DNA of 64,000 nt from Schmidtea nova (taxonomy: Eukaryota): the NCBI GenBank assembly GCA_044892505.1, contig CM097883.1:454522001-454586000 (forward strand). Direction: 5' to 3'. This document shows positions 1,263-46,687 of the stretch, one piece after another (positions within the stretch are counted from its first letter, which is position 1; each line of letters begins with the position of its first letter). Made by a program: the position numbers and the translations under genes. The notes beneath the pieces are model-generated. The model ran no database searches and had not been told where the DNA came from. It saw only the letters and a list, made by a program, of their open reading frames with translations.

Positions 1263-4200
1263 TTATCAGAAATATAATAATGGTAAAAATTTTTAAATCT
1301 TAAGATCCGTATTTTAAACAACAAAATATATATTTTATTAGACTAATATTATTAAGGTCAAACTTGATTAAATCATATTATTTAAACAAAGACAAAAAAG
1401 TTCAATTTAATTAAAAGTTGTCACAAGCGATGAGATTGGACAATAATTAAATGGTACTTTGTTTGCAAATTCTGTGATTTGGTATAGAATCCAAAAATCT
1501 TTTAGAGTAAAAATGCGGGGAAATGTATTGTTTACAGCGAAATGAGTTTATATGTTATTGGGATCCATAGGAACAACATAATATCGAGTAAACCTTTGCA
1601 TGATCTCAGTCGATTTTCTTTTATTTAGTCTGCCATAAAATATATACGTTCTTCCACTAAGTAGACATATTCACGAGTGTAAGTCAAACATTTTGGTAAT
1701 GGTGGGTTGTCCGTGGATATTTAATTTTGAATTTACATGTCAACGAATGATGTTAGAAGTCATCAGATGAGATTTCCTCAATTTCTCATTCGTTAATCAA
1801 CAAGATATGTACCCGTAAATGTGTGACTGGTCACGTTCACATTGGTACTGTAAATATGTAGTCAATAGGCTACTTCGGCAGTGATCACGCTTATTGCACT
1901 TTTAGGTCTTACGCTCATAACTACTCTTAAAGTCCTTTTAAATTTATCAACTCTTAACTTTTTATGGCATCGCTGTGTTCAATCTAACATATACACCTAT
2001 TTATTCACCAATTTTATCTTATTAACACCCGTCTATTCCTCCTGGTCTCTATTCCACTAAAATTCCCTTTTTTAGTCGGGTGGTTCTTATAATTATGTTC
2101 CTGACCTGTATGCACAATTGACTACAATTGACAAACACAAATTTGTCTAGCGATCTAGGGTCTTCCAAATCTTTTGGAACCCACAGCTGAATAACCGCAG
2201 AGTTCCGCAAAAAAACAAAATCTCTCCCTTTAATAAACTGTGCAATTGTTGGAAAGACGCAGTTCTCCTCTGGTCTTCTACCCATTGAGAACTTGCGGCC
2301 GGAGTGTCAACAGAGCTCTAAGTTGTTTTGAGACAATGTAATTTAGACTGTTGCTTACTTTTTAAAATAATATACTGCATCTTGCCATTGAGCAGCATGC
2401 CAAAATATTCCTAGATATTATTGGGCCCGGCGAATCGCAAAACAATCTTAAAAGGTATAAATTAAAACAAAAAAATGAAAAACAAACAATCAGCAAGCAC
2501 GGAAAACCTGAAAGAAACAGCATAACAATACAAATAATAATAATAACATAGAACTTACCGCTAGACCGAGATGAGAGAACTGTGTGATGAGTAACAAACC
2601 AACCAAGCGAAAATAAGACCTATCAAAATGTCATCAGATAAAATAAGCACAATAAACAATAATTACCAGTGATCAATTGAGAACCACCGAAGCCTGAAAT
2701 AGAAAGAATGATGAATAGTAAAAATTACAATAAAATAACCAGAGCGAGAACGACATTATGAACGGAACAAATGCGGAGGTGGACCGCTCGGACAAGATGT
2801 AGAAAATAAATATAAAATAAAAATCACTGGAGCATAAATAAAAGAATAAACATCAAACTCACCGGTCTAATAGAGAAAAACACAACAATCAAAATAAATG
2901 GATAGAAAAATAGACAACCGTGCTAAATTCTGATTGGCTGACAGGCAGCACAAATTAGTATAAATACTGAAGCAAAATCATTAGAAGTCAGTCATTTTTG
3001 CTGCGGTCATTTTTGCAGTCACATTTTACCAAGTGAACTATCTTACTAGTGTGAATTGGAAACTATTGAAATTGAAGAATTGTAACTGTGCAACTAATAA
3101 AAGGTATGTTCCATCTTGTTGTTTGTTATTAATTAAACCCTCTTGAACTTAAATTCTATAAGGTTTTGTCCTGAAGATCTAACGATCTGACGGGATTCTC
3201 GGCCTCTCGGCACAACATATTTTCATATGAGGTGCTGATGCGGCGAGACCATAGGTGTTATAAATAATTGGGAAGGGTAAGGGTGCACATAGCTCGTTCA
3301 TATCACTAACCAGCCGAGGAATTAAGTCAGATAATCAATAATAGTCGGAGCCAATATCAGTCTAGTTCAGCGTAAGCAACCTGACAATATAATTCATATG
3401 TAAGGGAAGGAGAACGTTAACAACTTGAGATGATGAACCTAATAACCAGGGAGTCAAGTTTCAGTTTCAGTCACATAAGACTAAGTCCCACAACCCAACC
3501 CAGTATATAAATCCATCTAATCGACTCGAATGTCTATAAATTGAGTATGAGTGAAAAGTTGCTTGATGCAGTAAAAAATTCAATGTGTGATGATGAAGAC
3601 CAACAATGCGTATGAGAATGAAATTCAATAAAACATAAATATTGTGATCAACCCACAATAATAGTCTACAGTCAACATCTAAATCTGTGTAGTAGTGTCA
3701 GCAACTTTAGTATGAAAACCAACCGCAACATCAGCGGGTAGGCAGGCCTATATATTGACCACTGATCAAGCAATGAATTATCTCGTGATTAAATTTTATA
3801 GAAACAGGAATGCATGGAATCAACCAGGTAATTAATTTGCTTATGCTCTAGGTGTGATGAAGGAATGCTGCTAGATTAGATTGACCTGATGAAAGGATGC
3901 ATGTTCAGGAGATATATCTGAATGATGATTGAAATACTCACGAATCTATATATCCATCTTTAGAAAATGATTTGCCGAAGGACGCGACGACAAGGCCATC
4001 CCGATCAGCGTTGACAAGCCATAGAATCCGCACTTATCCCTGGTGCCATAAAACAGTCGGCAGAACGACGTCTAAGAGCATGGATACGCGACACGTCGAT
4101 CCCGCCACCCGAATGGCCATCCAGTCCTTCCAATGGCGAGTACGTTGGGAAAGCGACCCGGAATGGTTGACACCAGCAGACAGGCCGAAGCGAGAAAAAC

Positions 4201-4754
4201 TCCGATGGTTCTTATAACTCGAAGATGCAGAACAACAACCCAAATGGATAATTAGCGATCCATCCGTACGAGGATCGGATTTCTATCGTCTCAGATACCT
4301 CCTCTCGGATCAGCCCAGAAGTAGAACAACCAGAGAGAGCCTTACCTACATGCTCCCGGAAATGTAGATATGAACCTCAAAAAATATGAACCCCTGTCCC
4401 GAAATATACCTGCCGGATGAAACCGGACGGGCGGATAGGCAACTCGATCAAGATCTCCTGGAATATTTGTAATGACTCCGAGCAGAACATTTGGAAGTTG
4501 CGTCGTGATCTATGTTTTGTTTAATAAATATCTAAACCCCTCTGTTATTTGAATCTGTCTGTGATGTGTGTATCGAGCGGTGAAAGTGTGAATGACGTAG
4601 GAATGATGAGAGAAATGTACTAGGTGGAGTATACGAGAGAAGGGTGAAGCCACAGACGGCAAGAACCACAACCATGTAAGGTCCCAAGGGATAAGGGGGA
4701 AATACAGGCCCGTAACAACCCCAATTCAGACGAAAATTAACCCTTTCCTTTTAG

Positions 4755-5312
4755 ATGAACCATACTAATCCTCGCGACTACAGGAGAGAGGCCAAGGAAT
4801 ATAAAGCTCGCGCTAAAGTCCTAGAGAGCAGATTACGTCAATTGAACGACGAACATCAGCGTATCAAAACCACCTGGTTTAACTCGGAACGAGTAAGGTC
4901 GATCTTACAGGCACGGCATAGAGCAGAGCGAATCGCCGAGGAGCAAACGAGGGAGACAGCAGCGGTGAGGCTGGAGTTACACAATTACCTGAAAGCCTCC
5001 ACCCAGGAATTCATCTCCCAACAACTACGCCCACTTATCAGAGCGAGTACGTTTAATCGCTGGGTAGATACGATATCTACGGCGACAAGTACTCAGACGG
5101 AGATGGAACCTAGTTCTACGACAACCTCTCCAGAGATGGTGAAACCAGTGGAAGGTTCAAAGAGGACAAAGCGCAGAAATCGCTTAGGGGCGAAAAGACG
5201 ACGGGAGCGCAGGGCGTACGCCGAAAGACTTGGTATTGAAGTGGATCTATTAAGCGGGCTGACCGAGGGACAGTTGTTGGATGTTATTAATCCCTCTGTG
5301 ATATTGAATTAA
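4755..5312 (+). CDS. Orphan 185-aa protein: coiled coil, Ser/Thr linker, Arg/Lys-rich patch
   Basis: Intact ATG-TAA ORF starting directly after the acceptor ccttttAG, followed by AATAAA and a GTATGT donor. No family recognised. Confidence 0.6.
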   Translation: MNHTNPRDYRREAKEYKARAKVLESRLRQLNDEHQRIKTTWFNSERVRSILQARHRAERIAEEQTRETAAVRLELHNYLKASTQEFISQQLRPLIRASTFNRWVDTISTATSTQTEMEPSSTTTSPEMVKPVEGSKRTKRRNRLGAKRRRERRAYAERLGIEVDLLSGLTEGQLLDVINPSVILN

Positions 5313-5437
5313 TAATAAATGTATGTTAGTTCATGGACTTGATTTGATTGATTGAGGAATGCATGTGGAAATATGTAAAGCCAATCAACACGAAACCGAT
5401 TCATTTTACGCTAGAGGTACCCCGAAATTGAACTTAT

Positions 5438-5665
5438 CTTAGAGTAACTAAAGCGAGCGTAGAAAGCAGGGACCGAAAGAAATCCACATAAACCTTCTAT
5501 CGGTAGTGGTGGACCCGTGAATAAACAAGGGAATAGTAGCCGCAAGGTTGCTCACCTGCCTTGTCATTTCACAACGTTGACACGGTACCAACATGATGAG
5601 TAGTTAGGGATACATCATGGGTGTCAGCGGGGGAGATATTTTTATGTTGGCGAGATCACTCTAAC
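5438..5665 (+). ncRNA. Conserved structured RNA motif, variant A (unknown family)
   Basis: Shares CTTAGAGTAA, CCTTCYATCGG, AGTAG..GCAA..GCTCAYCTGC, GTACCAACAT, TTAGGGA and ATGGGT with 8666-8877; stems show compensatory changes. Confidence 0.6.
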
Positions 5666-5709
5666 ATATAAAATCAAATTCGATCTCAGTTGAACAACTA
5701 ACCAACACA

Positions 5710-6240
5710 CCAGCAATATGATGTTTGTGACCATTGCAGTTGGTGTCGTTCTTTCAGGTGCTCTTCTGTGTTTTATTCTAAGACTTATATTGAAAATAAT
5801 TTTATTCGGTGAAAAATCTTCTTCGAGGTTTCAAACATTTTCTACATAAAATCTTCTCGTTGCAATAATATTTTCTTTGTGGAATTTGCTTTATCAGCTT
5901 CAATGATTAATGAAGATCTTGAAGGCACTCGTGAATAGATTAGATATGTTAATGCCAAAGTTAAAGTTATTCGATACAGCTGCTCCAATGCGTATTAACG
6001 AGAGGGTACAATCGTTGTCTACAAGATTTCTTATTTCCTTTACTGTGCCTTGATTCACCTCTTGGAATAGCAACAGTTCTTCCGGTCTTTTTAAAGGTAT
6101 CAATGGTGCTATATATGGTGCTATTTTGTAAACTTTCATATGCAGCTATTGACGCTACAGATTGTCTAGTGTTATAAGCTTGAATAATCCGCGATCTACG
6201 CCTTGCATCAAATTTATCATAGGATTGCCTTCTGTTTCTC
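5710..6240 (-). pseudogene. Tc1/IS630-like transposase remnant (HTH and N-terminal region; second copy at about 43520-44050)
   Basis: Frameshifted translation RRSRIIQAYN..SVASIA..STIYSTIDTFKKTG..IPRG / VKEIRNLVDNDCTLSL / SLKLIKQIP / NIIATRRFYV resembles IS630-Tc1 N-termini. Confidence 0.7.
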
Positions 6241-6569
6241 GCTGTTAGTATTTAAATAGACGTGTTTTCCTACTGATTTATTATATCATTTCCCGTATGG
6301 TTAGCAAGGTTTGTTTGACTAATATAAATTAGAAAATTGGATTTTTCATGGTTATCAAGTGATAAAAAACAAAATGTTTCTTGCCCTGAAATCATAACGA
6401 TGGGGTAGGATGCTTCACACAACTCTGGAATTTTACCAAATAAATTGTGAATAGAGGTTTTCATATTAATTAAATTATTTTACAGGTGAATTTTTTTTCT
6501 ATGAAATCATATTTAAAATAATAATACGGGAAAATGTATTCTGAAGTTAATTATCATGGTAGAAATGTA

Positions 6570-6810
6570 CCACATATTTCCCCCGGAGGTAAATCCTAGG
6601 GTCTATTAAATTTCTCATCATTAGCAATTGTTCCTTGGATACTTTTTCCATATAAATCATCTTTGTTACCAACAACGTAATTCGGTCCCATAATTCTGAC
6701 TTTTCTTTCAGCTCCTACCTTGTCTGCAATCGGTACCATTTTGCTGATGTATATCACTAAATTTCCATTGGAATCACAATTTTTCATTGAAATTGCAACT
6801 GCAGTAAGCC
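6570..6810 (-). pseudogene. EEF2: Elongation factor 2 domain II fragment (second copy at about 44380-44620)
   Basis: [45 protein letters not shown] / LMM / DLPPGEICG matches eEF2 [34 protein letters not shown]; internal deletion and frameshifts. Confidence 0.85.
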
Positions 6811-7099
6811 ATTTTCGTACGCTACATTTCAGTAACGGTTTTCTTCACTATTTAACTTTAAGCTCATTTTCGTTGCCAATCCAACATAATATTCCATTAA
6901 TTTGCTCATTACTTTGTTATGAGCCGAACGCGTCAATCAGTCAACGAGATATCAATGATATACCGACGCTCGGTTATATTCGTGTTAGTTCGGTCCATCT
7001 TGTTTCTTTCTCTGAAACTGTGTCTGTACCTTTCTAAGAAATATTCATACCCGCCTTTTGAGTTTAGTGGTTTCAATACTTTCTTTTAGTGTATTTATA

Positions 7100-7629
7100 G
7101 ACAATTGAAAATTATTGTTCTGGAGAAAGGTCATTTTCAAGGCTTAAAAATATCAAAAATGAATTAAGAAGCACAATGACCCAGACGAGTTTGTCTTCAT
7201 TGAGTATTTTGTGCATCGAAAATGAGACCTTCAGAAAAATTAATTTTGATGATCTTATAGAAGAATTCTGTGCAAAAAAAATTTAGAAAAAAATTCTTTT
7301 AATTTACTACTTCATTCGTCCTTAGCGTTTTATTATATTAGATTTTGTTTCCTTGTAATTGTTATGTGTTGTGTTGATTATTATTATTATTATTGTTATA
7401 TGATTAGTTATTGTTTTGGTTCTGAGAATAAATGTCTAAATAAATATTCTCAACTTTTTTTGTATTATCTTTGCCACATTGTACTAATCCTAACATATTT
7501 CATTAAACGTATATCACAGTATTAATGTATTTTATTATCTGTCATGTAATTTACAAACTGAAAAATAGGAGGTGAAAGGGCCTCATAAGTGTAATAGCCT
7601 AGGGCCTCTCTTCAGCTAAATCCGGCCCT
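7100..7629 (+). mobile_element. hAT transposon 3' end (second copy at about 44910-45439)
   Basis: GERSFSRLKNIKNELRSTMTQ..LSSLSILCIE is the hAT dimerisation domain; terminal CTAAATCCGGCCCT is a typical hAT TIR. Confidence 0.85.
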
Positions 7630-7879
7630 CTTTGTAAACATGATATTTTCCAAAATCATGTATTGTAATGATGGTGGTTGAAGCATGACGGAGTCGATTG
7701 TATGATATTTTAGAGCGTGTTATATTTTAGCTGGATTTTGGGGTGTTGAATAAATAAAAAGATCAACAGGTAACTAATTAATTTATGAGAATTGATACAC
7801 ATCGCTGATTATCTAATATGAATTTAAAAATGTATAAGAAAATGTATAAAATAGCAACAGAAAAATATTTTGGCTAATA

Positions 7880-8934
7880 CGTGCATGCAGTCTCGACACG
7901 AGCTTACACGTATTGTCCTAGCGACTGGTGTTGGGGGTCGGTAAGATGATAGAAACCGAGAGGAAAGCCGCTGCATACACCAACAGTTTTGCTAACCGTT
8001 GTATAGCAACCCCGCATCAGTAGTGGACACACAACCACTCAAAAATAGTATATAAAAACCATTGAAAATTCATAATTTTAACACTTTCTGAAATCAAAAT
8101 TTGCGGACAGTCGGTTTGAGTGATCCCACCAGCCAACTTTGGTCATTTTATTGGTTTATTCACGGAAACTAAACGTTTACGAGTTTACTCAAGTACTATT
8201 TTTATTTTTATAATGCGTAATTGGAAGTTTTTCTATAAATTGTTCATTGATGTTAATAAATATTTGGTATATCAGTTTTGAATTTGTTTTGAAATTGGAA
8301 GTTTTTCTATAAATTGTAAATTGATTTTAATAAATATTTGAAATATTAGTCTTGAGTTAATTTTTGATTTAGTAATCCCCGATTTAAATTTGGCTCATAA
8401 AGTAAATAGACGCATCTCTGTGGTGAAAATCGTGAAGGTGATTCCGTACGAGTGGCGCTGTTTATGGGACCCCGGTATGGTGAGTACATAATAAAATTAC
8501 TGACACTTAAATCAGGGGGATGGGAATCAGCAAATTACAGACACAAGTGTAAGGTAAACATGAGGCAGTTAACAGAGGTTAAATAGATAATTTTAAGGAT
8601 GAATAAGTGAAAATCGAAGATAGAATCAAGTAATAGAAAGTTAAGATTTAATCATGTGATAGGAGCTTAGAGTAAGCAGATGCGTAAGTCCTTCCATCGG
8701 CAGCAGAAACCCGAAAGAGAGAATATAGTGAGTAGTTTCGGCAACGGAGCTCATCTGCTCACTAGATTCTCACCACCGCGTATAGTACCAACATAGTTAA
8801 TTAGGGAATAACTATGGGTACACGAGTGAGGTAGCGTAATATTTATGAGGGGCAATGGGTTATATTAATCCCTAGTTTCAATAATAATTTTTACAACAAC
8901 ACCCATACAACCCAGCATTACTGTTTTATTTCAG
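7880..8934 (+). mobile_element. LTR-like element B with PBS-like site, splice donor and structured RNA (second copy at about 45690-46744)
   Basis: TATA at about 8050; 48-bp internal direct repeat (8219/8293); PBS-like TGGCGCTGTTTATGGGAC at 8452; donor GTGAGT at about 8480; acceptor TTTCAG at 8934. Confidence 0.45.
8666..8877 (+). ncRNA. Conserved structured RNA motif, variant B (unknown family)
   Basis: Stems AGCAGATG/CATCTGCT, TTCG-GCAA-CGGA and GTACC-AA-CATAGTT/AACTATG-GGTAC. Loop ATTAGGGA pairs with TCCCTAGT. Confidence 0.6.
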
Positions 8935-10179
8935 TCATTAGATATATATTTTTTTTATTTAATTTATTAATAGTATCATCTGATAATAAATTTCATCAAT
9001 AAAAATTGCAACCCGATCGGCGATAACTCTGGCCATTATTCAAATAGAGCCCACATGGGGAAAATTCTCAATAGTTAAACCAATATTGACTGCCAATTAG
9101 TGTGATATTTAAGGAAATAACTGTTTTCTGAAATTTAATAATTTTTTAAAGCAGGTTACTAAAAATTTAGGGTTTATTTTAGAGAAATTGCAGAATCTTT
9201 GAAGATTTCAAAATAAATTTTACACATTATTCTATATGATTTTTCTTCGATTAAAGAAAATCTTTCATTTCGAAACCAGGTCTCAAAAACATGTCTAATC
9301 AATCGAAAAGTAAATTAACATTCGATTTTATTTCTAGATTTAAATACACCTGATTGCTATTTGATTGTAAATATTGTTATAATTCCTATTTATAAGAATG
9401 ATAATTAAATGCATTCTTGAGTAACATTTGTTAAAATAAATTTTCATTCAAGTGAAATACACGCGAACTAGTATTATAGAAGGTGCTATTCAACGTTATA
9501 CATCAGGAGACTTTTCGTTACACTTATCGTTACACTATTCTATATCTTTGAAATATTAATTTGTGTTAATTCAGACTAATTTTTAATTTCAAGATGAAAA
9601 TTTATCTATTAAAACATAATAAATTTTCAAATAGAAATTATTTGGTTGTTCTTTAATTTAGTCTAAAATTTTGATGTTATTTACTTATTTAAGCGTAACG
9701 ATACATCGGTAGACTTGCAGAAATTTACTCTAATTCGAGTGGATGTTTTCAGGTGCTATACAAACAAATTTTAACTACTTTATCGCAGGGCATACTTTAT
9801 AAATAGAAATCTTATACTGGGTTTTTGTTGTTCTCAATGCTTATATTTGACAGGTCAGCAAAAGTTAATTGACTGAAACTGAAGAACTGATTATTCAAAA
9901 ATGTTCTACATTATTTTTTGGGTAAGTACGTATAATTAATTTAATTACTTTTGATATATTCTAATTGTAGATAAACTTTTGCAGAGATCAGTGGTGAAAA
10001 ACGCTATGGATAAAATTAACTAAATAAATTATATTGGAAATAATTATCCTTTCATGTGGAAATTAAATTCGCATTTAATTTTACTGAACATTGGGTAACT
10101 GTATTTTGTTAAATATAATTTATAAATCTAATATTCATAGTTATAAATTTTATTTTTTAGGTTTAAAAAAACTCTTATA

Positions 10180-11087
10180 ATGGAAAGAAAAAAACGTATT
10201 ACGGTAACGAATGAAATGCATCAATATGGCTAACTCTGCAAATAAGCCTTCAGTCAAGGACATTGCTTCTGCAGTTGGATTAAGCATCAGTTCGGTCAGA
10301 AATATGCTTAACAAGCAACAAGACGGAATTGGTTTTGTTTCATCTACTCAAAAGAGGAAAAAAACATAGGATAGAAAATATCCTATGTGATCCAGAAAAC
10401 GTCTTGTTTAATGCTCTTGCATGTAATAACGAACTTTTGCAGTCAGAGATGGCTTTCATAGTAGAAGAGAGTACAGATGTGTTTATGTCACAACCAACGG
10501 TGGTTCGCAAATTAAAAAAAATTAACATAACAAGAAAACGTCTCACTCTTGTGCCGGTGGAGCGTAATTCACCAGACAATTAAGATAAAAGAACAATTTA
10601 CGCAGGCAAAATTGTTAGATTAACCCCAGAAAAATTAGTTTTTATGGATGAATCTGAATTCAACAATCATTGCCGGCGCCGTTATGTTAATGAGAGTTAA
10701 TTACTGTACCGGTTAACCGTTATATTAATTAAATCTTGATTTGTGCTATTAACATTAATGGTTTCATTGCGTTCGAGTATAGATCAGGTGCTTATAATGC
10801 AGAGTTACTTACATCTTTTATTGACAGTAAATTGACACCTTACTTCGCTATGCATCCTGATCATACTTTAATTATGGATTGTAGTTGAAGCCTTGAGTAG
10901 GCGTAGGATAAGTAAAGAATACTTACCACCATGGTCCCCTCAACTTAATCCAATTGAGGAATTTTTCAGTATGATTAAATCGAAGTTCAGAGCCTTGAAA
11001 GCATCCAATAATGAAATAACAGTGGAGGAAGCATTATCTGATATTCTATCAGATATATATATGTTGAACAGTGCCTTTAGAAAATAA
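10180..11087 (+). pseudogene. Tc1/IS630-like DDE transposase pseudogene (second copy at 47990-48897)
   Basis: MERKKRI..KDIASAVGLSISSVR; TRKRLTLVPVERNS; LVFMDES; LIMD; YLPPWSPQLNPIEEFFS; several stops and frameshifts. Confidence 0.9.
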
Positions 11088-14076: not shown

Positions 14077-16654
14077 GGCTCCTATTTATTCGCTATGTAT
14101 TTTTTACTAAACGCTATGTATTTTATTAGTGCCTTTATGTATTTTTTTCTAAGTAAATATTTATAAAATGCTAAGTATTATATTAATTATATAAGTAAAA
14201 AAAAGAATTCATTAGGTATTTAATTATTTAATTATAGGTAATATTTTTAATTTTTATAAGTAAAAAAAATACAAAAACTAAGTAAAACAATGAAAAATTC
14301 ATAAGTATAAACAAAAAGTGACACAATAAAAAAATCCATAAAAATACAAAGACTATTTCACGAAGATTATTATAAAAATATTTGAAATTATTGTTTTAAT
14401 AAGGCTTTTTTAGCTTTAGTTGGTCTTCCTCTTGGTAGTTTACTTCCAATAGAAGTATTCTTAGCTACTGCTGGTACTTTGCAATATTTAAGTCTGATTG
14501 AAATGCCGACAACATGCTTGCAAATAAATTTTTTATTAAATGCTGGACAATTGCACTGACTGTCGGCCCAATTGGCTTTATCGTTTGGTAAATTAATGCG
14601 CCAGACAGTAAAAGCTCGCTTCTTAAATTGATCGAATGTCTTCTTGAGTTATAGTTGCGTCACTAGCTGAAACATAGTAGTTTGTCGAAAGAATTGCTTT
14701 GTTTTCATTAGCCCATTGATAAGACTGTGTCCATAATGCTGTTTCGATTGATTGTTTTGTAATAAACTCCTTCAGACTTCGAGGATATGCTAGTGACCAC
14801 TTTTTAACAATATCTAAAGCTTGTTTGCTAAATCTAGATAATGGCGTGCGCTCTCTAATAGTTTCTTCGTCTTTAAGAACTCGACTCTAGATTATTGTTA
14901 GTACTTGGCGTGAAGGGCATGTATCCTTCATACCAAGTATTGCGTGTCGTAAGCCACATCATATTCATATAGTCTAAAACCTCAGTCGCTTTTTTTGTCT
15001 CCATTTTTTAACAAATAGAGAACTTGCTTTTTCAAAAATGACTTGGCTTTGTGACAATTGAAGTTGATCTACATCTTCAATTAATTCGTTTTGATCTTCT
15101 TTAGCTACTAAAGACTCGATTTTTTTGACACAATTTCTACGCATATGTGGCCAACACATCACAATTTCATTTTTATTAAAAACTTGTGAATAAGCTTTAC
15201 GTATAGCGTTAGAAGCATCAGAAATCAATACACGAGGATTGAATAATGATGCATTTATTTTTTTCAAGCCAATATTGATACTTGAAAAAATAAAATTAAA
15301 ATCAGCAGTTTTTTCATTGGTACATATACCTAGGCCAAACGAATGAAAATGCCTATCTAAATCGGTTGTACCAATGATTAAAATTGGATAGCCCTGCCAA
15401 ACCAGTTTATAAGTTGCATCAGCATTTAAAATTGTTGATGCTGAGGCTAGCTTAAGTAATCTTATTGTACTTATAAAAAATCTAAATTTAGAGCTGTGGT
15501 GTTCTTCATCTTCATCGCTTTCTTCATTACTCTCTTCACACTCATATTCATCGGAATAAGTTATTTTATAATTGACTACAAAGGCTTCATCTTCTAACTC
15601 TGGTATAGAAGATGATGATTGAAGCCAATTTTCAAGCTCACCTAAACTTATTACTGGTGGCCCGTAAACTTCATTTCTAATTTTGTTGAATTGATTTCTT
15701 AATTGTATGGTAGTAGGAACAGGCTTTATACCTCGTTCATGAAAGATTTCTAACATTCTCTTAGGTTTTATTTTAAGCTTAAACAACTCTTTAATTAGTT
15801 CTTTAGCTTCGTTAGATATTGCAGATTTAGACATGTTTTCTTCATGCTTATGCTCAGCTTCTGCCCTAAAAAGAATAACTTCGTCTGATCTTGAGTCGTA
15901 AAGTAAATGTAATGCAGAATCACATTGCTTGCCTTTAAATTTAACTTGATTGCATCGATAGTAAACTTTATTACCATCTTCAGTTTTGTTGGAATAAGAG
16001 TAACTCCATATCTTCTCTTCTTTAATTGCATTTTTTGCTTCTTCAGCACTTTTAAATACTTTTTCATGAGTCCAAACTTTGGACACTTTTTTGGCTCGTG
16101 GTTTCTTTAAACTTGTAACTTCAACATCAAACTCAAGATCAGACTGATAATCTTCAACTTCTCCAAAATTATTAGCCATTATAAGTTCAGTATTTGTTTT
16201 AATTTTGTTTATAATAAATAAATATTTGGGCTTATAAATATTCAGAAACTTGGATAATAAATTAAATCAGATCACATGAAAAAAAAGACTTAAACAAAAT
16301 GATTAGAGTTCTAAGACTTTACGTAGAAAACCATACCGCTTTATTGAAAGTTTGTAATAATTGTCGAAAAAAATAAGATCTAAGAACATCTTAGAAAAAA
16401 TTAAGATTTATTGATGGATTTTATTAATTGACATATCGTTTTTTTATTTTACTTATAACTTGTTTTCTTGACTTGGCATTTATTTATTTTACATAGTTTT
16501 TAATTAGTTACTTAGCGAATGTATTAAATATCTAGAATTAATTAATTAACATAGAAGTGTTTTACTCTACTGATACTGTGTATTTATCTACATAGAAAGT
16601 GTTTATAAAATACATAGCGTTTAGTAAAAAATACATAGCGAATAAATAGTTCTC
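14077..16654 (-). mobile_element. Complete MULE (Mutator-like) DNA transposon with frameshifted transposase (16179-14388)
   Basis: Inverted termini CTATTTATTCGCTATGTATTTTTTACTAAACGCTATGTATTTT; 9-bp TSD TATTAAAAG (14068-14076, 16655-16663). MULE motifs LNADATYKL, ISDAS..AI, MCWPH, TNNNLES and SWIM finger CNCPAF..FICKH. Confidence 0.95.
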
Positions 16655-16718
16655 TATTAAAAGGATTAACCTACTATTTGGAAATATCCATTAGCTATAA
16701 CTCATTAATAAATATCAA

Positions 16719-16946
16719 ATCAATTAAAATATCAATTAAAATATCAATTAAAATATCAATTAAAATATCAATTAAAATATCAATTAAAATATCAATTAAA
16801 ATATCAATTAAAATATCAATTAAAATATCAATTAAAATATCAATTAAAATATCAATTAAAATATCAATTAAAATATCAATTAAAATATCAATTAAAATAT
16901 CAATTAAAATATCAATTAAAATATCAATTAAAATATCGATTAAAAT
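16719..16946. repeat. (ATCAATTAAAAT)n minisatellite, 18 perfect units plus 1 variant
   Basis: Direct count. A shorter degenerate array lies at about 17625-17700. Confidence 0.97.
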
Positions 16947-18099
16947 ATAAATTAAAATAAAATATCAATGAAAATACAATTATTTAATACATTTAAAATT
17001 ATTTTTTCTTTTATTGTTCTAATTCATATTCAGCAACTCCTAATGATAATATTTATATTGGGTGATTAGAGCACTATCTTCCAGAATTACAGACATTCAA
17101 TTCAAATGAATGTCCTCGTTTTCACGTGACTCTGACAATAATCCACCTGAAGATCGCTTCAAAGTATATCTAAATGGAAATTTTCGTAGATTAATGGCAA
17201 AAGAAAATCTGCTGCGATCGCTATTTTCTCACCATCAATTTATATCGTTCTCTAAATACAGTTCTGGCATTAAGTGGGTCGTTCTCATCCTAGTGAAGAA
17301 GCATTATTTGCAACAATTTACATTATTTGGATCGACTCATGTGACACTGCTAATAATAGGCGCTTCTTCGCATTTGATGATTTACAATTTATTCAATGGA
17401 TTTTCAATGACAGTTTCTAGAAAGTTATGTAATGATATTATGACAAATATGGTGGGGTTTTTCATCGGAAGTAGTCCGCTAATTATATTTTATTCATTGG
17501 GTTTTATTTATATTTTCTCTCAAGCCTTGATCAACTGGCCTGCATCAAACATATTAGGCATATTAAAAGAATAAGTCTACTATTTGGAAATATCCATTAG
17601 CTATAACTCATCAATAAATATCAAATCAATTAAAATATCAATTAAAATATCAATAAATATATCAATTAAAATATCAATTAAAATATCGATTAAAATATAA
17701 ATTAAAATAAAATATCAATGAAAATACAATTATTTAATACATTTAAAATTATTTTTTCTTTAATTGTTCTAATTCATATTCAGCAACTCCTAATGACAAT
17801 ATTAATATTGGGTGATTAGAGCACTATCTTCCAGAATTACAGACATGGATTGGATATTTAAATTTTAATTTATTTAAAATCAATATTATTGATTACAATA
17901 ATTAATTAGTTTTACAAAATTTATATATTGCTTATAATAATCATACAATATTAGAGTCACTCACATTTGTTATAAAGACAACAAATGGAGGGTTTATATT
18001 TTAGTTTCCTTACTATGGGAAATAAGTTTAAGGACCTCTTAAGGGGTTTAAGGAGTAAACTAATTTACAATTATTGATTACCATTAATTTTAATAAATA

Positions 18100-18750: not shown

Positions 18751-21344
18751 GACATTTTATAGGATTATTATAAAACGTAAAAAGATTTATTTATATACTT
18801 GAGGGGGATATTTTATCGAAAATTTGTAAAATAAAATATGATTGTTACTCAATTGACGAAATAAATGAATTCTTCACTGATTCCACAATATGTTGGAGGT
18901 GAAGAAGAATATGAGAAGATTAAAGAGATTTTCTTTCAAAGATATATTTTTGTGCAAATTGGCAAGGAGAGAAAGAAGCATAAAATAAAAAAGAAGTTAA
19001 ACAAGCAAGTAAATAAACTAAGAAAATAAATTTAAAGATTTCTCGGGGAAAAACAGGCTGTTCTAAAAGTACGAGAAGAAAATATTAAAGAATTGGCAAC
19101 ATTTTGTTTGACAATATGTTGTTTAAGAAGGATTACATACCCAATGTTTCATATTTGTCAATTCAGGTGAATGTGTTTAAATATAGTGAAATTAAATGCT
19201 TATTTAAATTATGTTAGATTCGAGATTTAATATGAAAACGTAAGAGAAAAAAATAATTTGTTTTGAAATAAAAATTGGACAAAAAAGAAAAAATGAAAAT
19301 AAAGAAAAAGATTACTGAAGTATAAAACACGCGGAGAATGACCGAAAACGATTTAAAAGAAACAGATACAAAATTCCTTTCTTTTGATCAAATGTTAGAT
19401 GAAAATTATTTATCAATCTTCCTCGTCTTTCATTTGTTATAAACTATTTCGCTAATTCACGTTTACAAATTAATACAAATTTCCAGCTGTATCTTTCAAT
19501 TATTGATAATAACTAATTATAGTTAACTAGGTAATTGTAAGGCGCCTAAGGCACCCGTTGACAAATCATAAAATAAATGAACAATTTGATGTACGAAATT
19601 TTTTCATTAAAAATTCAATTTCTTTTATTCTTAAGCAATTGAAAATTATTTCTGTTATATATTATATGGAATGGCAAAAAAAATTGTTTTATTGAAGAAC
19701 GTATTGAAAAACTACATTCCGTGTGAATTATCTTTGATAATTCAATAAATTTCCTTGCTGTGTATTCGATTCAATAAGCACCTTCACTTGACTTGCAACT
19801 CTTGATTAATTTTTAATTTTTATTTTGCAAAATAAACTTAGAAAGCGCTGTTTAAAACTTGTTAATCGTGTAAAAATCTATGTTAGTATTAGCGTTATAG
19901 AATCAGTGATGAGCGTAATTATATATAGTTAATATTGAATCACGATAAATATTAAATAAATTTATGCAATTTCAAATTCATTTATAAATTTATTACAACA
20001 TAAATATTCAAAACGAATTTGATTCAAGAGTCAAATCAAATTATTCTTTCACTTTCATATTGAATTTAAATTTTCATTATTTTCTAAAGTTAACTTATGA
20101 GAATATATTCATCCAATTTATTATAATAATTGTTGATTAATAAAAAAATAATTAAATATAGATTAAATATTGGAAATTCCAAATTTATATAAATATAAAA
20201 AACCAAATTCAAATAAAAATAATTATTATCACGTTCAAAATTAATATTTGTTTCTGTAATTTACCCGCAAAATAATCCTAGCGATCCATTACGGTTTAAA
20301 GCGACAGATGAGGCCTGAATAAAAAGAAATGGTTAAGAAAATATATATTATATTTCATAGAAATTTACTTGAATTTCTTTTGGTCGTTGGTCCTCTCGCA
20401 CGAGATTCATTTTGGATCTCGATTATAATTGAAATTGGAATAATATTTCAGTGACAAAATATTTTAAAATTACCTCTACCACTAATGATTATTTAAACAA
20501 TTACATAATAGTATATAAATATATAGGTTTTATTATTTCTATTTGTGTGACTTTTGCTTTAATTGAAGTTTGAGTTTAATATAATTATTTTATTTTATCT
20601 GTTTATTATTATTAAATATTTAAAATAAATTTTGATTAAAACTTTATCATATATCAATTAATTGTGGTGAGTTATAGGTAATACGCGAAAATTAATTACC
20701 GTTAATCTTTTCCAATAAACTCGCATATAATCAATAATTAAGCATATTGTTGCCCACTACAGTGTAACGTTGGGACTGCAATGGGTGAACTTTCGCAAAT
20801 GTGATCGTCAAATGAATCGAAACTATAATTGACCGAATGCCACGAGTGGGTTTAAAGGTGACCGATAGAAGGTACTTTTCCTATTTTCCTCCCTTCATTT
20901 ACTATCAACGTAACTAAACTTATCGAACTAATAACGACAATAACCCATTTACTAACACTAAGGTGACAATTAGTATAAAAGATCATATTTCTTTCACTAT
21001 TGTCAACATATAGATCGAAATTAATAAATTTATTATATATCTATTTGATAGATGTAATTAAACTAAATATGTTAAAATATAAACAAGGAAAAACGAGAAT
21101 CAATAAAATAATATAAAGACATATAATACTAAACAAAATATTACACTAAAATTTCAACTAAATATATTCAAATCAAAGTATTCGTTAAAAGAGAATTATA
21201 ATACAATAATTGAATTTCGGCACGTTAAGAATTCAAAATTATATCAAGGATTCAGATTCCTTCTATTTCTGGGGATTGATTGAGAAATATAGGTCATCTC
21301 ACAATCTCGCTTCCTGACGTCTCTTACGACGAGCTCGAATAACC

Positions 21345-34799: not shown

Positions 34800-35270
34800 T
34801 CACAATTGGATGTCCACTGTACATTTTATATAGATTTCATCATTAATGGTCAGATCTGGATTGGCGGATAATTTTGATTGGCTTATAAATTTGTCATAGC
34901 CAATTCCATTATTTATATCTGTCGGTTGGATAAGTGCTTCACTATTGGGATATACTGCACATATAGCAGTCCTACTGACATGCGCCAGCCGCGTGCGCTG
35001 ATTGACCAATGCAAATGTGATGGAATGCCTGAATGGCCATCCCAAAATCCCATCACACGGGCCCTTCCTCAAGCAGAAGTACACAGATAAATGCATGCCC
35101 TTGCCACTGCCATCAGGATGCACACGTAAACACATTTTATAACCGTTTCTATGCGTGAGAAATGATTCGCTATAAATGATTGTGTTTCTTCCATTTCTTG
35201 CATCTGCCATTTTATCACTGAATTTGTCGAGCTTCCAAATAAATTCTCCATAATTCAGATTACTGTGCAC
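34800..35270 (-). pseudogene. TRAF: Second TRAF MATH-domain paralogue (last exon and 3' flank; no clear ATG or upstream exons)
   Basis: 156-codon open frame closely similar to the 36301-36780 MATH. The block 34597-35258 is homologous to 36097-36770 including the 3' flank. Confidence 0.8.
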
Positions 35271-35529
35271 CCGAGTTATTGGTTCATAAAATATACAAGC
35301 TTACTGGAATCAATATCGAACAATTGCTTAAGATTCACTATGATATGGTTCTCGGATCAAATGCTAAATGCGTTGAAAATTGTATAGTTTGCGAAGATTC
35401 AATGAGATTATCCTGTGTAAACGGATGTGCATGCTGTCACGATTTTAAGAGATCATTCGGTGCATATTTTAATGTCCGAAATGCGTAAAGCATATTATAA
35501 CGACATTTACAATTTATAATAAAGTTTTG

Positions 35530-36300: not shown

Positions 36301-39072
36301 TCACAATTGGATGTCCACGGAACATTTTATATAGATTTCATCATTAATGGTCAGATCTGGATTGGCGGATAATTCTGATTGGCTTATTATATTAAAGCCA
36401 ATTCCAATATTTCTATCTGTCGGTTGAATAAGTGATTTATTAAATGATTCATTATTTGGATGATCTGCACATTTCACAGTCCCACTGTCATGCGCCAGCC
36501 GCGTGCGCTGATTGACCAATGCAAATGTGACGGAATGCCTGAATGGCCATCCCAATATCCCATCACATGGGCCCTTCATCAAACAGAAGAACACAGATAA
36601 ATGCGTGCCCTTGCCACTGCCACTGCCATCAGGATGCACACGTAAACACATTTTATAACCGTTTCTATGCGTGAGAAATGATTCGCTATAAATGATTGTA
36701 TTGATTCCATTTCTTGCATCTGCCATTTTATCACTGAATTTGTCGAGCTTCCAAATAAATTCTGCACAATTCAGTTGATTTTGATTGGCTGCCATTTCCA
36801 ATAATTTGTTGTCAACAGTTTGCATTGATTTATCGATTTTATTTGACATTTCCGCGTGATCAATTTTATGTTTGTTTTCCATTTGATCGATTTTTATAAT
36901 AAATTCTTTCTGAAATTTTTGTTTTATTTATTTATTAATCAGAAATTTATTTTACTTCTTTATTTTCTCTCATCTGATTCGCATTGTCAAAATTGTTTTC
37001 TGCTTGCTGGCATTTGGTGGCGCATTGGGCAATTTGTTGCTGGAAATTGTTCTCACATGCTTGAATGGCCCGCTGGAATATTACCGCATCAAATAATCAA
37101 TTATTTCATCAATATTTAACCTGGTTGCCTTCGACATCCAATTTCAATCTATTCAATTCATCGCTTATATTCCTATTCACATTCCTCAATGCCGGCATTT
37201 CCTCGTTCAATAATGCGATTTCTCGAGCGTGATCGTCACATTTCCTATGCAAATCTCCAATTTCAATCTTGATAATAATCACAATTGATCAATAAATATC
37301 AATATTGCAATTTATTGACAAACTCGATTCCTTTGCCCATCTGAAATCAATTTATCCATATTTTCTCGTATCGCAACATTTTCAGCATTCAAACAAATTA
37401 TATACGCATTCAACTGGTCAATTTTGGAGGCGCATTGGGCAATTTGTTGCTGGAAATTGTTGAAATTATTATTAAATATGCAATCAAATAAATATTAGAA
37501 ATTATTTATTGACTTTTGCAAGTAAAATGAATATTTTAGCCTTCGTTTTAAGGTTAATTTAATTATTTAATTATTGTTTTATCGTAATATAAAAATAGTA
37601 AAATATAACGGCATTATAATAGAGATTGTTATAGCAAGCTGGATGTAGTTATTCGAAGTTAATGGAAGATAAATAACTAGAAGTGAGCAAAAATGAACCA
37701 CCGAAAGAAACTTAAATAATTATATGAAGTATGAATTCTCGATGAAATTTGGCTCAGAATCTGAACTTATTATGCAGTACATTGTTTGTTTGGATGTTTA
37801 TCAAGAGAGTAGAGCCTATTTTGAGAAGAAATTTATTTTCAGGGCCCGCCGAAAGCAGAATAGGCATAATAGAGCATCTAGTCAGAATATTATGAATTCA
37901 AATAGAAATAGTATGACAGAATAAATTTGGATATACATATGTGAATGCACAATGGAATAAATGGGGACATGGATCTTTGGGACGAAGCATGAACTTATTG
38001 TATTTGATATTCAAGTTTGGTTTTCTATATAAATGTTTTTTTTAACTTTGCAATTTGTTACAATCATTTCAATTAATCAATATTTCACCTGGTTGCCCTC
38101 GACATCCAATTTCAATCCATCCAATCCATCGCTCATATTCTTATCCGCATTCCTCAATGCCAGCATGTCCTCGTTCATTAATGCGATTTCTAGAGCGTGA
38201 TCGTCACATTTCCTCTGCAAATCTCCAATTTCAATCTTGATAATAATCGCAATTGATCAATAAATATCAATATTGCAATTTATTGACAAACTCGATTCCT
38301 TTGCCCATCTGAAATCAATTTATCCATATTTTTTCTTATTGCAACATTTTCAGCATTCAAAGAAATTATATCCGCATTCAACTGGTCAATTTTTACGGTT
38401 TTCTCATCAGATTGGCACTGCAAATCAGAAATTTCCTCCTGAATTCTCATCATTTATCCACATCAAATCAAATATTGCATTTACTCGTCTTCTCTCGCCA
38501 TCCAATTTCAATTTATTGATCTCAGTTTGCAATAAATTATTATTGGCTTTCACTATGTCCATCTCATTATTGAAATTGCCAATGAAGTCCATCAATAATT
38601 TTGTGTGCGTCAATATTTCAGATTGCAAATGATCCGCAACATTATCCTGAGATATATTGCATGCGTCACATCCGATATTCGAATACGGACATGCAACTGA
38701 TCGGTATTTGCACATCCGTGAATGTTCTTCTATTTTTCTGATTTCATCAACAAACTCACAATTGCCATTCAGGCATTTCACTTTTAACTTTGATATTTTG
38801 CTATTAATTACGTGATCCACTGCAATATTTTCATCCAAACTGAGCCTTTCCAGTTGACATTCGTCTGTGTTACCAGGACAAATTTTATTCTCGCCACCTA
38901 GAAAGCCTGAAATGCAAGTGAAACAAAACCTGCAACCGCACGGAACAGAGCGAGCATTGATCAATAATTTTTTACACAATAAGCATAACATATCATGCTC
39001 AATTTTTGACACAAATTCATAATTATTATTTGTCAATATTTGCCAAACATTTTCTAATTTTGAACCAGACAT
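36301..39072 (-). CDS. TRAF: Full-length TRAF-family protein, about 626 aa: RING, zinc finger, long coiled coil, MATH. Exons 39072-38485, 38438-38292, 38235-38089, 37449-37324, 37267-37121, 37072-36956, 36909-36301
   Basis: Manual splicing: all six introns are GT-AG and phase 0 (46, 56, 639, 56, 48, 46 nt) and the frame is open throughout. The C-terminus has MATH motifs FIWKL, GYKMCLRV, HLSVFF, WPF. Confidence 0.88.
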
Positions 39073-43247: not shown

Positions 43248-43475
43248 CTTAGAGTAACTAAAGCGAGCGTAGAAAGCAGGGACCGAAAGAAATCCACATA
43301 AACCTTCTATCGGTAGTGGTGGACCCGTGAATAAACAAGGGAATAGTAGCCGCAAGGTTGCTCACCTGCCTTGTCATTTCACAACGTTGACACGGTACCA
43401 ACATGATGAGTAGTTAGGGATACATCATGGGTGTCAGCGGGGGAGATATTTTTATGTTGGCGAGATCACTCTAAC
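43248..43475 (+). ncRNA. Structured RNA motif variant A, duplicated copy
   Basis: Copy of 5438-5665. Confidence 0.6.
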
Positions 43476-46475
43476 ATATAAAATCAAATTCGATCTCAGT
43501 TGAACAACTAACCAACACACCAGCAATATGATGTTTGTGACCATTGCAGTTGGTGTCGTTCTTTCAGGTGCTCTTCTGTGTTTTATTCTAAGACTTATAT
43601 TGAAAATAATTTTATTCGGTGAAAAATCTTCTTCGAGGTTTCAAACATTTTCTACATAAAATCTTCTCGTTGCAATAATATTTTCTTTGTGGAATTTGCT
43701 TTATCAGCTTCAATGATTAATGAAGATCTTGAAGGCACTCGTGAATAGATTAGATATGTTAATGCCAAAGTTAAAGTTATTCGATACAGCTGCTCCAATG
43801 CGTATTAACGAGAGGGTACAATCGTTGTCTACAAGATTTCTTATTTCCTTTACTGTGCCTTGATTCACCTCTTGGAATAGCAACAGTTCTTCCGGTCTTT
43901 TTAAAGGTATCAATGGTGCTATATATGGTGCTATTTTGTAAACTTTCATATGCAGCTATTGACGCTACAGATTGTCTAGTGTTATAAGCTTGAATAATCC
44001 GCGATCTACGCCTTGCATCAAATTTATCATAGGATTGCCTTCTGTTTCTCGCTGTTAGTATTTAAATAGACGTGTTTTCCTACTGATTTATTATATCATT
44101 TCCCGTATGGTTAGCAAGGTTTGTTTGACTAATATAAATTAGAAAATTGGATTTTTCATGGTTATCAAGTGATAAAAAACAAAATGTTTCTTGCCCTGAA
44201 ATCATAACGATGGGGTAGGATGCTTCACACAACTCTGGAATTTTACCAAATAAATTGTGAATAGAGGTTTTCATATTAATTAAATTATTTTACAGGTGAA
44301 TTTTTTTTCTATGAAATCATATTTAAAATAATAATACGGGAAAATGTATTCTGAAGTTAATTATCATGGTAGAAATGTACCACATATTTCCCCCGGAGGT
44401 AAATCCTAGGGTCTATTAAATTTCTCATCATTAGCAATTGTTCCTTGGATACTTTTTCCATATAAATCATCTTTGTTACCAACAACGTAATTCGGTCCCA
44501 TAATTCTGACTTTTCTTTCAGCTCCTACCTTGTCTGCAATCGGTACCATTTTGCTGATGTATATCACTAAATTTCCATTGGAATCACAATTTTTCATTGA
44601 AATTGCAACTGCAGTAAGCCATTTTCGTACGCTACATTTCAGTAACGGTTTTCTTCACTATTTAACTTTAAGCTCATTTTCGTTGCCAATCCAACATAAT
44701 ATTCCATTAATTTGCTCATTACTTTGTTATGAGCCGAACGCGTCAATCAGTCAACGAGATATCAATGATATACCGACGCTCGGTTATATTCGTGTTAGTT
44801 CGGTCCATCTTGTTTCTTTCTCTGAAACTGTGTCTGTACCTTTCTAAGAAATATTCATACCCGCCTTTTGAGTTTAGTGGTTTCAATACTTTCTTTTAGT
44901 GTATTTATAGACAATTGAAAATTATTGTTCTGGAGAAAGGTCATTTTCAAGGCTTAAAAATATCAAAAATGAATTAAGAAGCACAATGACCCAGACGAGT
45001 TTGTCTTCATTGAGTATTTTGTGCATCGAAAATGAGACCTTCAGAAAAATTAATTTTGATGATCTTATAGAAGAATTCTGTGCAAAAAAAATTTAGAAAA
45101 AAATTCTTTTAATTTACTACTTCATTCGTCCTTAGCGTTTTATTATATTAGATTTTGTTTCCTTGTAATTGTTATGTGTTGTGTTGATTATTATTATTAT
45201 TATTGTTATATGATTAGTTATTGTTTTGGTTCTGAGAATAAATGTCTAAATAAATATTCTCAACTTTTTTTGTATTATCTTTGCCACATTGTACTAATCC
45301 TAACATATTTCATTAAACGTATATCACAGTATTAATGTATTTTATTATCTGTCATGTAATATACAAACTGAAAAATAGGAGGTGAAAGGGCCTCATAAGT
45401 GTAATAGCCTAGGGCCTCTCTTCAGCTAAATCCGGCCCTCTTTGTAAACATGATATTTTCCAAAATCATGTATTGTAATGATGGTGGTTGAAGCATGACG
45501 GAGTCGATTGTATGATATTTTAGAGCGTGTTATATTTTAGCTGGATTTTGGGGTGTTGAATAAATAAAAAGATCAACAGGTAACTAATTAATTTATGAGA
45601 ATTGATACACATCGCTGATTATCTAATATGAATTTAAAAATGTATAAGAAAATGTATAAAATAGCAACAGAAAAATATTTTGGCTAATACGTGCATGCAG
45701 TCTCGACACGAGCTTACACGTATTGTCCTAGCGACTGGTGTTGGGGGTCGGTAAGATGATAGAAACCGAGAGGAAAGCCGCTGCATACACCAATAGTTTT
45801 GCTAACCGTTGTATAGCAACCCCGCATCAGTAGTGGACACACAACCACTCAAAAATAGTATATAAAAACCATTGAAAATTCATAATTTTAACACTTTCTG
45901 AAATCAAAATTTGCGGACAGTCGGTTTGAGTGATCCCACCAGCCAACTTTGGTCATTTTATTGGTTTATTCACGGAAACTAAACGTTTACGAGTTTACTC
46001 AAGTACTATTTTTATTTTTATAATGCGTAATTGGAAGTTTTTCTATAAATTGTTCATTGATGTTAATAAATATTTGGTATATCAGTTTTGAATTTGTTTT
46101 GAAATTGGAAGTTTTTCTATAAATTGTAAATTGATTTTAATAAATATTTGAAATATTAGTCTTGAGTTAATTTTTGATTTAGTAATCCCCGATTTAAATT
46201 TGGCTCATAAAGTAAATAGACGCATCTCTGTGGTGAAAATCGTGAAGGTGATTCCGTACGAGTGGCGCTGTTTATGGGACCCCGGTATGGTGAGTACATA
46301 ATAAAATTACTGACACTTAAATCAGGGGGATGGGAATCAGCAAATTACAGACACAAGTGTAAGGTAAACATGAGGCAGTTAACAGAGGTTAAATAGATAA
46401 TTTTAAGGATGAATAAGTGAAAATCGAAGATAGAATCAAGTAATAGAAAGTTAAGATTTAATCATGTGATAGGAG

Positions 46476-46687
46476 CTTAGAGTAAGCAGATGCGTAAGTC
46501 CTTCCATCGGCAGCAGAAACCCGAAAGAGAGAATATAGTGAGTAGTTTCGGCAACGGAGCTCATCTGCTCACTAGATTCTCACCACCGCGTATAGTACCA
46601 ACATAGTTAATTAGGGAATAACTATGGGTACACGAGTGAGGTAGCGTAATATTTATGAGGGGCAATGGGTTATATTAATCCCTAGTT
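46476..46687 (+). ncRNA. Structured RNA motif variant B, duplicated copy
   Basis: Copy of 8666-8877. Confidence 0.6.

Follow-up and report, generated by a model that had tools for sequence, protein, structure and literature searches.

Leaders that steer a primer tRNA are known from a few retroviruses and from yeast Ty elements, mostly through probing of single isolates, and their role is disputed. The 5′ TPsiC arm of the primer is bound by the primer activation signal (PAS) in HIV-1 and by U5 sequences in RSV and HIV-2, and a PAS is also predicted for HTLV-1, which is primed by tRNA-Pro (PMC3185550, PMC11251516). The role of the PAS in HIV-1 is itself under dispute (PMC3185550). In Ty1, boxes 0 and 1 extend the pairing with the tRNA (PMC3592414). 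Multi-stem cis-acting RNAs of a few hundred nucleotides, with possible pseudoknots or tertiary contacts, have further been described as export elements, among them the MusD MTE, the MLV PTE and the RRE (PMC4588558).

The RNA analysed here, located in a window of 64 kb (the whole stretch of DNA under study), shares features with each of these systems. Like the HIV-1 PAS and its RSV and HIV-2 counterparts, it has, most likely in U5 and ahead of the PBS, a box of 7–8 nt that complements the 5′ T-arm and is set in a structured leader. Unlike the PAS, this box lies 200–250 nt before the PBS, within a three-arm fold with about 50 near-invariant letters in LTRs that are otherwise unalignable, and it is accompanied by a second box whose sequence matches the D-loop. 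As in the Ty1 leader, pairing would extend beyond the PBS, and a compact fold would be tied to reverse transcription; in Ty1, however, the boxes are part of GAG, 3′ of the PBS, and the primer is tRNA-iMet (PMC3592414), whereas here they lie wholly in the LTR, 5′ of an 18-nt PBS. The MTE, PTE and RRE are of comparable size and build but occupy other genome positions (PMC4588558), and no Rfam or sequence match to them was found here.

The RNA is a conserved three-arm fold of about 200 nt that is common to many distantly related giant LTR elements. That it is real, under purifying selection and well supported as a structure can be stated with high confidence. Its copies in the window, and their parts, are as follows.

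5473–5670, + strand: structured RNA copy A (covariance-model match of 164.6 bits; a close relative, L007, is in the training set)
5493–5503, + strand: arm 1 of A, a CC/GG stem with the near-invariant 7-nt loop UUCUAUC; motif CCTTCYATCGG, also at 8690–8700 in B
5511–5517, + strand: box 1 of A, here GGACCCG but GAACCCG in the majority of clusters; it complements tRNA-Pro at the 5′ T-arm and TPsiC
5517–5572, + strand: arm 2 of A, with a long helix, a 3-nt GAR bulge, the UAG/CUG helix, the CUCAC bulge and the GCAA hairpin (5537–5550)
5550–5558, + strand: motif GCTCAYCTG, also at 8749–8757 in B
5576–5628, + strand: arm 3 of A, with helices 5576–83/5621–28 and 5592–98/5613–19, an A.U.CCAA internal loop and a UUAGGG loop (5604–09)
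5585–5592, + strand: motif GTACCAAC, also at 8785–8792 in B
5641–5646, + strand: conserved UUUAUG of A
5659–5664, + strand: box 2 of A, CTCTAA; the usual sequence is CCCTAA among A copies and CCCTAG among clusters
8670–8881, + strand: structured RNA copy B (165.3 bits; itself in the training set as L032)
8690–8700, 8707–13, 8719–71 and 8777–8824, + strand: arm 1, box 1, arm 2 and arm 3 of B
8842–47 and 8870–75, + strand: UUUAUG and box 2 (CCCUAG) of B
8684–8689, + strand: donor-like GTAAGT directly 5′ of arm 1 of B, present in 24 of 31 B-cluster copies
20690–20892, − strand: third copy, decayed and of another lineage (20.3 bits, E 1.4e-4; 75.6% identity over 168 nt to L184)
43283–43480, + strand: identical twin of copy A, by 37.8-kb tandem duplication
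46480–46691, + strand: identical twin of copy B, by the same duplication
58501–58703, − strand: twin of the decayed third copy, by the same duplication

All three copies are thus repeated 37.8 kb downstream; neither this repetition nor the third copy figured in an earlier note on this DNA, which had proposed the structure from copies A and B. The duplicated stretches (1–26209 and 37811–64000) are 99.9% identical and represent either a recent segmental duplication or an assembly artefact.

Across lineages, arm 1 is a stem of 2–4 bp closed by the loop UUCUAUC, and the linker that joins it to arm 2 bears GAACCCG. In arm 2, a long helix and a GAR bulge lead to the invariant UAG/CUG helix, beyond which lie a CUCAC bulge and a hairpin that carries a GNRA cap in 16.6 of 31 clusters; the register with UAG/CUG and a CUCAC bulge and an alternative one with AG/CU are indistinguishable by covariation. 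In arm 3, two helices flank the A.U.CCAA loop, and the terminal loop often contains UAGGG. UUUAUG follows 3′ of arm 3, and then CCCUAR. Some 50 columns are conserved at 85% or more, and most of these are unpaired or belong to invariant pairs. The clusters referred to throughout derive from 36 clusters (172 sequences), reduced to 32 by removal of four false anchors and to 31 by removal of that of L161, where a tandem repeat covers arm 1; many of them are decayed singletons and not separate families.

Covariation supports this fold in alignments of different origin. In a MAFFT alignment of 29 copies, the same sequences from which the structure was drawn, 88.8% of cells pair and 24 of 36 pairs change on both sides; none of 500 shuffles matches the real pairing, and slid controls pair at 36–41%. 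When all 18,576 column pairs of 52 copies were compared, in an alignment that had been fitted to the model, helix pairs made up 14 of the top 15. New loci matched the model without exception (30/30, at 69–135 bits, one of them, L224, duplicating a training locus). RNAalifold, applied to a plain MAFFT alignment of 22 unused copies, returned the same three arms; of their 33 pairs, 25 had changed on both sides. In held-out copies with preset registers, themselves taken in part from that RNAalifold result, 89.8% of positions were paired as against 32–37% in slid controls, and 24 of 33 pairs were compensatory. The individual copies also fold better than expected, with z-scores of −3.36 for A (equalled by none of 200 shuffles) and −2.37 for B (equalled by 5 of 200).

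Much of the description in the earlier note is borne out by these data. The motifs CCTTCYATCGG, ACCCG, AGTAG, GCTCAYCTG, GTACCAAC, TTAGGG, ATGGGT and TTTATG do occur in the same order in A and B, which otherwise yield no blastn alignment and were both placed within LTRs, as had been stated. The GCAA hairpin and the helix CATGATG/CATCATG of A (CATAGTT/AACTATG in B) are genuine and covary across families, and further copies that match a covariance model of the RNA, the kind of check that had been suggested, retain the stems with covariation. Assignment of the RNA to the + strand is favoured by U.G pairs that are invariant on that strand (28/29 and 29/29), but folding energy alone argues for it modestly, with a mean z of −1.16 versus −0.62 for the other strand (31 clusters). 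The GTACC-AA base proposed for the bulged hairpin is one of two registers (CC/GG with an AA bulge, or a single internal loop), between which covariation cannot separate.

Other elements of that description did not hold when A and B were each compared with 28 other copies. The supposed shared motif CTTAGAGTAA is exact in one of 28 other A copies, in none of 28 other B copies and in 0.4 of 31 clusters, and on this comparison its instances in the window are a coincidence and not homologous. The long-range stem is not the covarying helix as which it had been presented: among the 27 scorable A copies, 3 retain all five pairs of GCAGG/CCTGC and 22 retain four, and among the 28 B copies, 4 retain eight pairs of AGCAGATG/CATCTGCT and 15 retain seven. 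A nested helix competes for one of its strands, and all six pairs of this helix are present in 26 A copies and 20 B copies, of 28 each. The long-range stem may nevertheless survive as an alternative fold, as pairing within families is stronger than pairing across families (−8.0 versus −7.5 kcal/mol, p 0.005).

This own-family versus cross-family comparison covered 29 clusters (two were skipped, as anchors were missing), with arm 2 as positive control (p 0.0002). Four further contacts proved possible as pairings, with no own-family advantage or family-specific covariation in the same 29 clusters: a long-range closing helix between 5′ YAAG and UUUAUG (p 0.47), a loop-tail pseudoknot between the arm-3 loop and box 2 (p 0.49), upstream GACC with arm 1 (p 0.60), and box 1 with the GGG of arm 3 (p 0.69). 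The D-type lineages L216, L218, L229, L255 and L256 carry an extra hairpin, CACCC/GGGUG around GACC, 20–55 nt upstream of arm 1, whose 3′ strand GGUGAG is donor-like and also complementary to the CUCACC bulge. An upstream CACCCNAA box in D-type lineages, considered as a partner of the tRNA-Pro anticodon arm, was rejected, as it folds into a hairpin of its own locally and is free to vary at the middle letter.

Copies A and B form the 3′ ends, most likely U5, of two solo LTRs that belong to Burro-like giant Gypsy elements. The corresponding features of the window are the following.

2419–5715, + strand: solo LTR of family A, 3.3 kb, with TA..CA ends and the 4-bp target-site duplication ATAT
4755–5312, + strand: 185-aa ORF inside LTR A and outside the RNA, with no Pfam family above cut-off
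5314–5319, + strand: AATAAA, the likely LTR poly(A) signal, which 27 of 28 A copies retain and behind which lies a U/GU-rich tract
7716–8917, + strand: solo LTR of family B, with a 5′ end that is unrecognisable in this copy, ending CCCAGCA

Sister copies of LTR A begin with TGTTGGGC and end with CCARCA, many of them with 4-bp duplications. Homology between copies ends abruptly at CCARCA, and the sequence downstream is unshared among 60 loci, the window twins excepted. At one locus (L266) a B-type LTR is followed by the PBS. The 185-aa ORF of LTR A, which stops two bases before AATAAA, is matched by tblastn at 19 of 20 sister loci, at 15 of which the match is a single stretch of 185 residues, with 71–94% identity in sister LTRs; its only domain likeness is a weak bZIP-like score. 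Three spaced repeats resembling TAAWCCCTCT...TGAA were seen by eye in LTR A (3134–3150, 4533–4554 and 5288–5309), the last at the end of this ORF.

The RNA is abundant in this animal genome of 1.25 Gb with three large chromosomes, whose host is, judging from the kind of element, probably a planarian. A three-motif pattern gave at least 1,000 matches (489 + 511) and a pattern for other lineages 456 more, i.e. at least 1,456 exact motif matches in total, while reversed controls gave none for either pattern; the RNA sequences fall in the 31 clusters described above. Identical matches spaced 12 and 24–25 kb apart mark whole elements. In one with A-type RNA, the LTRs are 99.8% identical over 1,556 nt and lie about 24.4 kb apart, and the element encodes a Gag zinc knuckle, a viral fusion glycoprotein, protease, reverse transcriptase, RNase H and integrase as well as ankyrin repeats and a RING-TRAF-MATH protein. 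At L131–L133, a length of over 20 kb and an env-like fusion protein between gag and protease, with ankyrin and MATH/TRAF domains, agree with the description of Burro. The likeness to Burro/GYPSM1, giant Gypsy-like elements of planarians, lies in this domain set and in the spacing of the twin LTRs by about 24 kb; in the account of Burro consulted here (PMC6431247), no LTR RNA structure is mentioned. Pfam searches of 10 ORFs of two elements found no BIR, BCL2-like, SUMO-like or dUTPase-like domains at E≤0.001. A 12-kb element with C-type LTRs (L134, 4424–9722) has a gag ORF, a 56-bp tandem array and an intact RNA (202 bits); the parts inspected contain no further long frame, pol included, and the element is possibly non-autonomous.

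Whole elements place the RNA with respect to the start of reverse transcription. Downstream of their 5′ LTRs, after about 6 nt, lies an 18-nt PBS with perfect complementarity to the 3′-terminal 18 nt, CCA included, of the tRNA-Pro of this genome; the earlier note could not see this PBS because solo LTRs lack one. The pattern of LTR end and PBS occurs at 98 places, and all 30 loci that were fetched, which are not independent given their shared ancestry, match the RNA model at 98–206 bits just upstream of the PBS. They span A-like, B, C, D and further lineages, and the distance from the end of box 2 to the PBS is 48–101 nt (36 loci). The spacer between LTR end and PBS is a conserved 6 nt, mostly TAAATT (L103, L105, L109, L125 and L251–L280), longer than the usual 0–3 nt. 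The tRNA-Pro genes occur in tandem arrays with periods of 308 and 713 bp (L196–L201, L245–L250; 899 matches to the 3′ pattern), which include a copy with changed anticodon that ARAGORN calls Ile. Covarying helices and the presence of the RNA in PBS-bearing LTRs together support the proposal that it is a functional cis-RNA of an LTR retroelement family.

An AATAAA lies 180–216 nt upstream of the RNA and is conserved in three of the five large clusters (kept in 24/27 A, 19/24 C and 10/17 F copies, at most 12/31 B copies, and with none above 30% in D). Because the RNA is downstream of this conserved AATAAA, it lies most likely in U5. The 5′ splice donors that had been placed upstream of the two copies are by comparison poorly kept: GTATGT at 5321 in 5 of 28 A copies, as against 27 of 28 for AATAAA at 5314, and the hexamer GTGAGT at 8481, proposed as a donor near 8480, in 6 of 28 B copies. 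A stable intronic RNA downstream of such donors is therefore unsupported at these positions, and the signal kept 180 nt upstream of A is of the poly(A) type. A different donor-like site, GTRAG, occurs no more than 30 nt 5′ of arm 1: 13.2 of 31 clusters have it, compared with 1.1 in upstream control windows; it is kept in 24/31, 22/24 and 17/17 copies of three large clusters and absent from A and 17 other clusters. In the GTRAG-bearing lineages an intron-borne packaging or export role is possible.

The explanation we put first, at slightly less than an even chance, is that the RNA serves as a docking and activation platform for the primer tRNA-Pro at the start of reverse transcription. Downstream of the poly(A) signal, it would be present once per genomic RNA, in the 5′ leader, and would be the first template copied after priming. 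Once the 3′ 18 nt of the tRNA had annealed to the PBS, the freed 5′ T-arm (CGGGUUC) could pair with box 1 (GAACCCG) and the D-loop (UCUAGGG) with box 2 (CCCUAGA). Without the tRNA, the arm-3 loop UAGGG might hold box 2 as a pseudoknot and so provide an off/on switch, and the invariant bulges and loops could bind Gag/nucleocapsid or reverse transcriptase, or form tertiary contacts.

Several observations favour tRNA docking. The reverse complement of nt 1–57 of tRNA-Pro contains both GAACCCG and CCCTAGA, which are among 28 conserved 7-mers, and both boxes lie outside the covarying stems. Against shuffles that keep the universal tRNA positions, the match has p 0.021 for 7-mers and 0.044 for 6-mers (0.014–0.021 against free shuffles), modest values for a match that was noticed before it was tested. 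Among the control tRNAs, only three of which are independent, Lys-TTT and Arg-TCG have no 7-mer, Arg-CCT has one and none matches both boxes; a “tRNA-Ile” control was discarded as a tRNA-Pro variant. Predicted duplexes with the tRNA reach −12 to −15 kcal/mol for box 1 in 11 of 12 leaders and −12 to −18 kcal/mol for box 2 in 9 of 12. GAACCCG is exact in 15.8 of 32 clusters, with each position kept in 24–32 of 32. In box 2, which in A could pair with either the arm-3 loop or the tRNA-Pro D-loop, CCCUA is kept in 27.9–31.0 of 32 clusters per position, better than its intramolecular partner, and in L143 and L191 the loop UAGGG is lost and CCCUAG kept. Retention of box 2 without its loop partner fits the existence of a second partner.

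Other observations count against docking. GAACC is complementary to any tRNA, and one primer is common to all families tested, which leaves no variation in the tRNA for the boxes to follow. The A-type CCCUAA makes a D-loop match of 5 bp only, position 6 being A in 9.3 of 32 clusters, and box 1 of copy B in the window reads AAACCCG. The greater part of the invariant letters (the UUCUAUC loop, the GAR and CUCAC bulges, CCAAC and UUUAUG) is left unexplained by tRNA pairing. Accessibility of the boxes in predicted folds ranges from 0.04 to 0.91, and box 1 has an unpaired probability of 0.04–0.64 in 12 leaders. It is tempting to speculate further that the tRNA is captured at three sites (PBS, T-arm and D-loop) by an RNA of riboswitch size with a tertiary fold, which carries its own tRNA-like decoy loops (UAGGG and the T-loop-like UUCUAUC) and stays off until the tRNA displaces them. 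This bolder version is doubtful; were it true, it would amount to an RNA-encoded primer-loading switch across a clade of giant env-bearing metavirus elements.

Of the alternatives to tRNA docking, a signal bound by protein, through which the unspliced genomic RNA would be packaged, dimerised or exported from the nucleus, fares best, although we consider it rather unlikely. With a major donor just 5′ of the fold, fold and PBS would be found only in unspliced RNA, as with Psi or with export elements of the CTE/RTE/MTE type, and GTRAG near arm 1 (13.2 of 31 clusters versus 1.1 in the control) agrees with this. Export elements use tertiary contacts (PMC4588558), for which the GNRA loop of arm 2 in 16.6 of 31 clusters would be suited, but the ones described occupy env or pol, the neighbourhood of the 3′ LTR or that LTR itself (PMC4588558). 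Invariant asymmetric loops and bulges on variable stems likewise suit a protein site. The loop UAGGG(A/U) resembles the hnRNP A1 site, which is counted in favour. On the other side, the candidate donor is missing from A and 17 other clusters, and Psi usually lies 3′ of the PBS. Primer docking and packaging or export are compatible and not exclusive.

A structural switch on the foamy-virus model (PMC3694450), with the choice of poly(A) site between the two LTRs set by whether a U1-binding site is exposed or hidden, is improbable. The arrangement invites the comparison: three clusters have a conserved AATAAA 180–216 nt upstream, and next to the fold lies a donor-like site, which in B, C and F types could pair with UUUAUG. 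However, more than half of the clusters lack the donor, its masking by such pairing shows no family-specific covariation (p 0.47), and the donor lies downstream of the poly(A) signal here but upstream in foamy virus.

Still less probable is constraint at the level of DNA (minus strong-stop DNA, integration end, enhancer or terminator) or functionless residual homology. The minus strand does fold somewhat (mean z −0.62) and has the lower z-score in 13 of 31 clusters. Compensatory changes in 24/36 and 24/33 pairs, pairing of 89–90% as against 32–41% when slid, and the invariant U.G pairs on the + strand nevertheless speak for RNA. So does conservation along the LTR, the RNA region being matched at 0.96 versus 0.79–0.80 in A and 0.87 versus 0.66–0.70 in B, values biased by the fact that copies were found with the RNA region.

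A new self-cleaving or capping ribozyme that processes the element RNA is the least probable of all and very unlikely: the size, the approximately 50 near-invariant letters and a GNRA loop with a possible CC/GG-AA receptor register would suit one, and ribozymes are present in other retroelements (PMC6765202), but the window, 5200–9100 and 16 loci contain no relevant Rfam family, no conserved C-R-A junction precedes a covarying closing helix, a cut between the cap-proximal repeat and the PBS would presumably break the strong-stop DNA template, and no tested feature points to a ribozyme. An HDV-like ribozyme was rejected in particular, with a loop that reads UUCUAUC, no conserved C before UUUAUG and a closing helix that does not covary. 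Ribozymes of that type form a nested double pseudoknot with a catalytic C in J4/2 and a G in L3, and the CC-UUCUAUC-GG hairpin, counted in favour, bears a loose likeness to P3/L3 of HDV. A dicistrovirus-type (type 6) IRES, in which the open frame begins right after the 3′ pseudoknot, was also rejected: stop codons follow within 5 and 10 codons after box 2 in L125 and L103, respectively (by eye).

The RNA family is absent from Rfam 15, in agreement with the earlier view that it belongs to no recognised family. The search gave no match at gathering score in the whole 64-kb window, three chance hits of no relevance in 5200–9100 (E 3.9–9 at a threshold of E≤10), and none at E≤1 in 16 related loci. 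A literature search found no description of this RNA; the primary Burro paper (2018), supplements and Repbase, which lay outside that search, could mention one. Patterns run against metagenomes returned 0 and 16 stretches, the latter scoring at most 14.9 bits, and viral contigs 13 pattern matches with no match to the model, all of which we read as chance. Dozens of diverged LTR lineages carry a covariation-backed fold together with candidate tRNA-pairing boxes, which offers a phylogenetic and biochemical system for primer selection and activation by retroelements. The model (R1) is also a sensitive marker for annotating these LTRs, given more than 1,000 copies in the genome.

Beyond the LTRs, the window contains TRAF-like genes with RING, zinc finger and MATH domains at 615–1262, 34800–35300 and 36301–36927, all on the − strand; the whole elements carry the same domains. 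An ORF for a MULE transposase lies at 14974–16266 (−) and an HTH fragment at 5967–6251 (−), and the stretch at 10200–11050 (+) is, by eye, presumably a decayed Tc1/IS630-like transposase. An array of 12-bp tandem repeats occupies 16590–17117 and 54389–54900.
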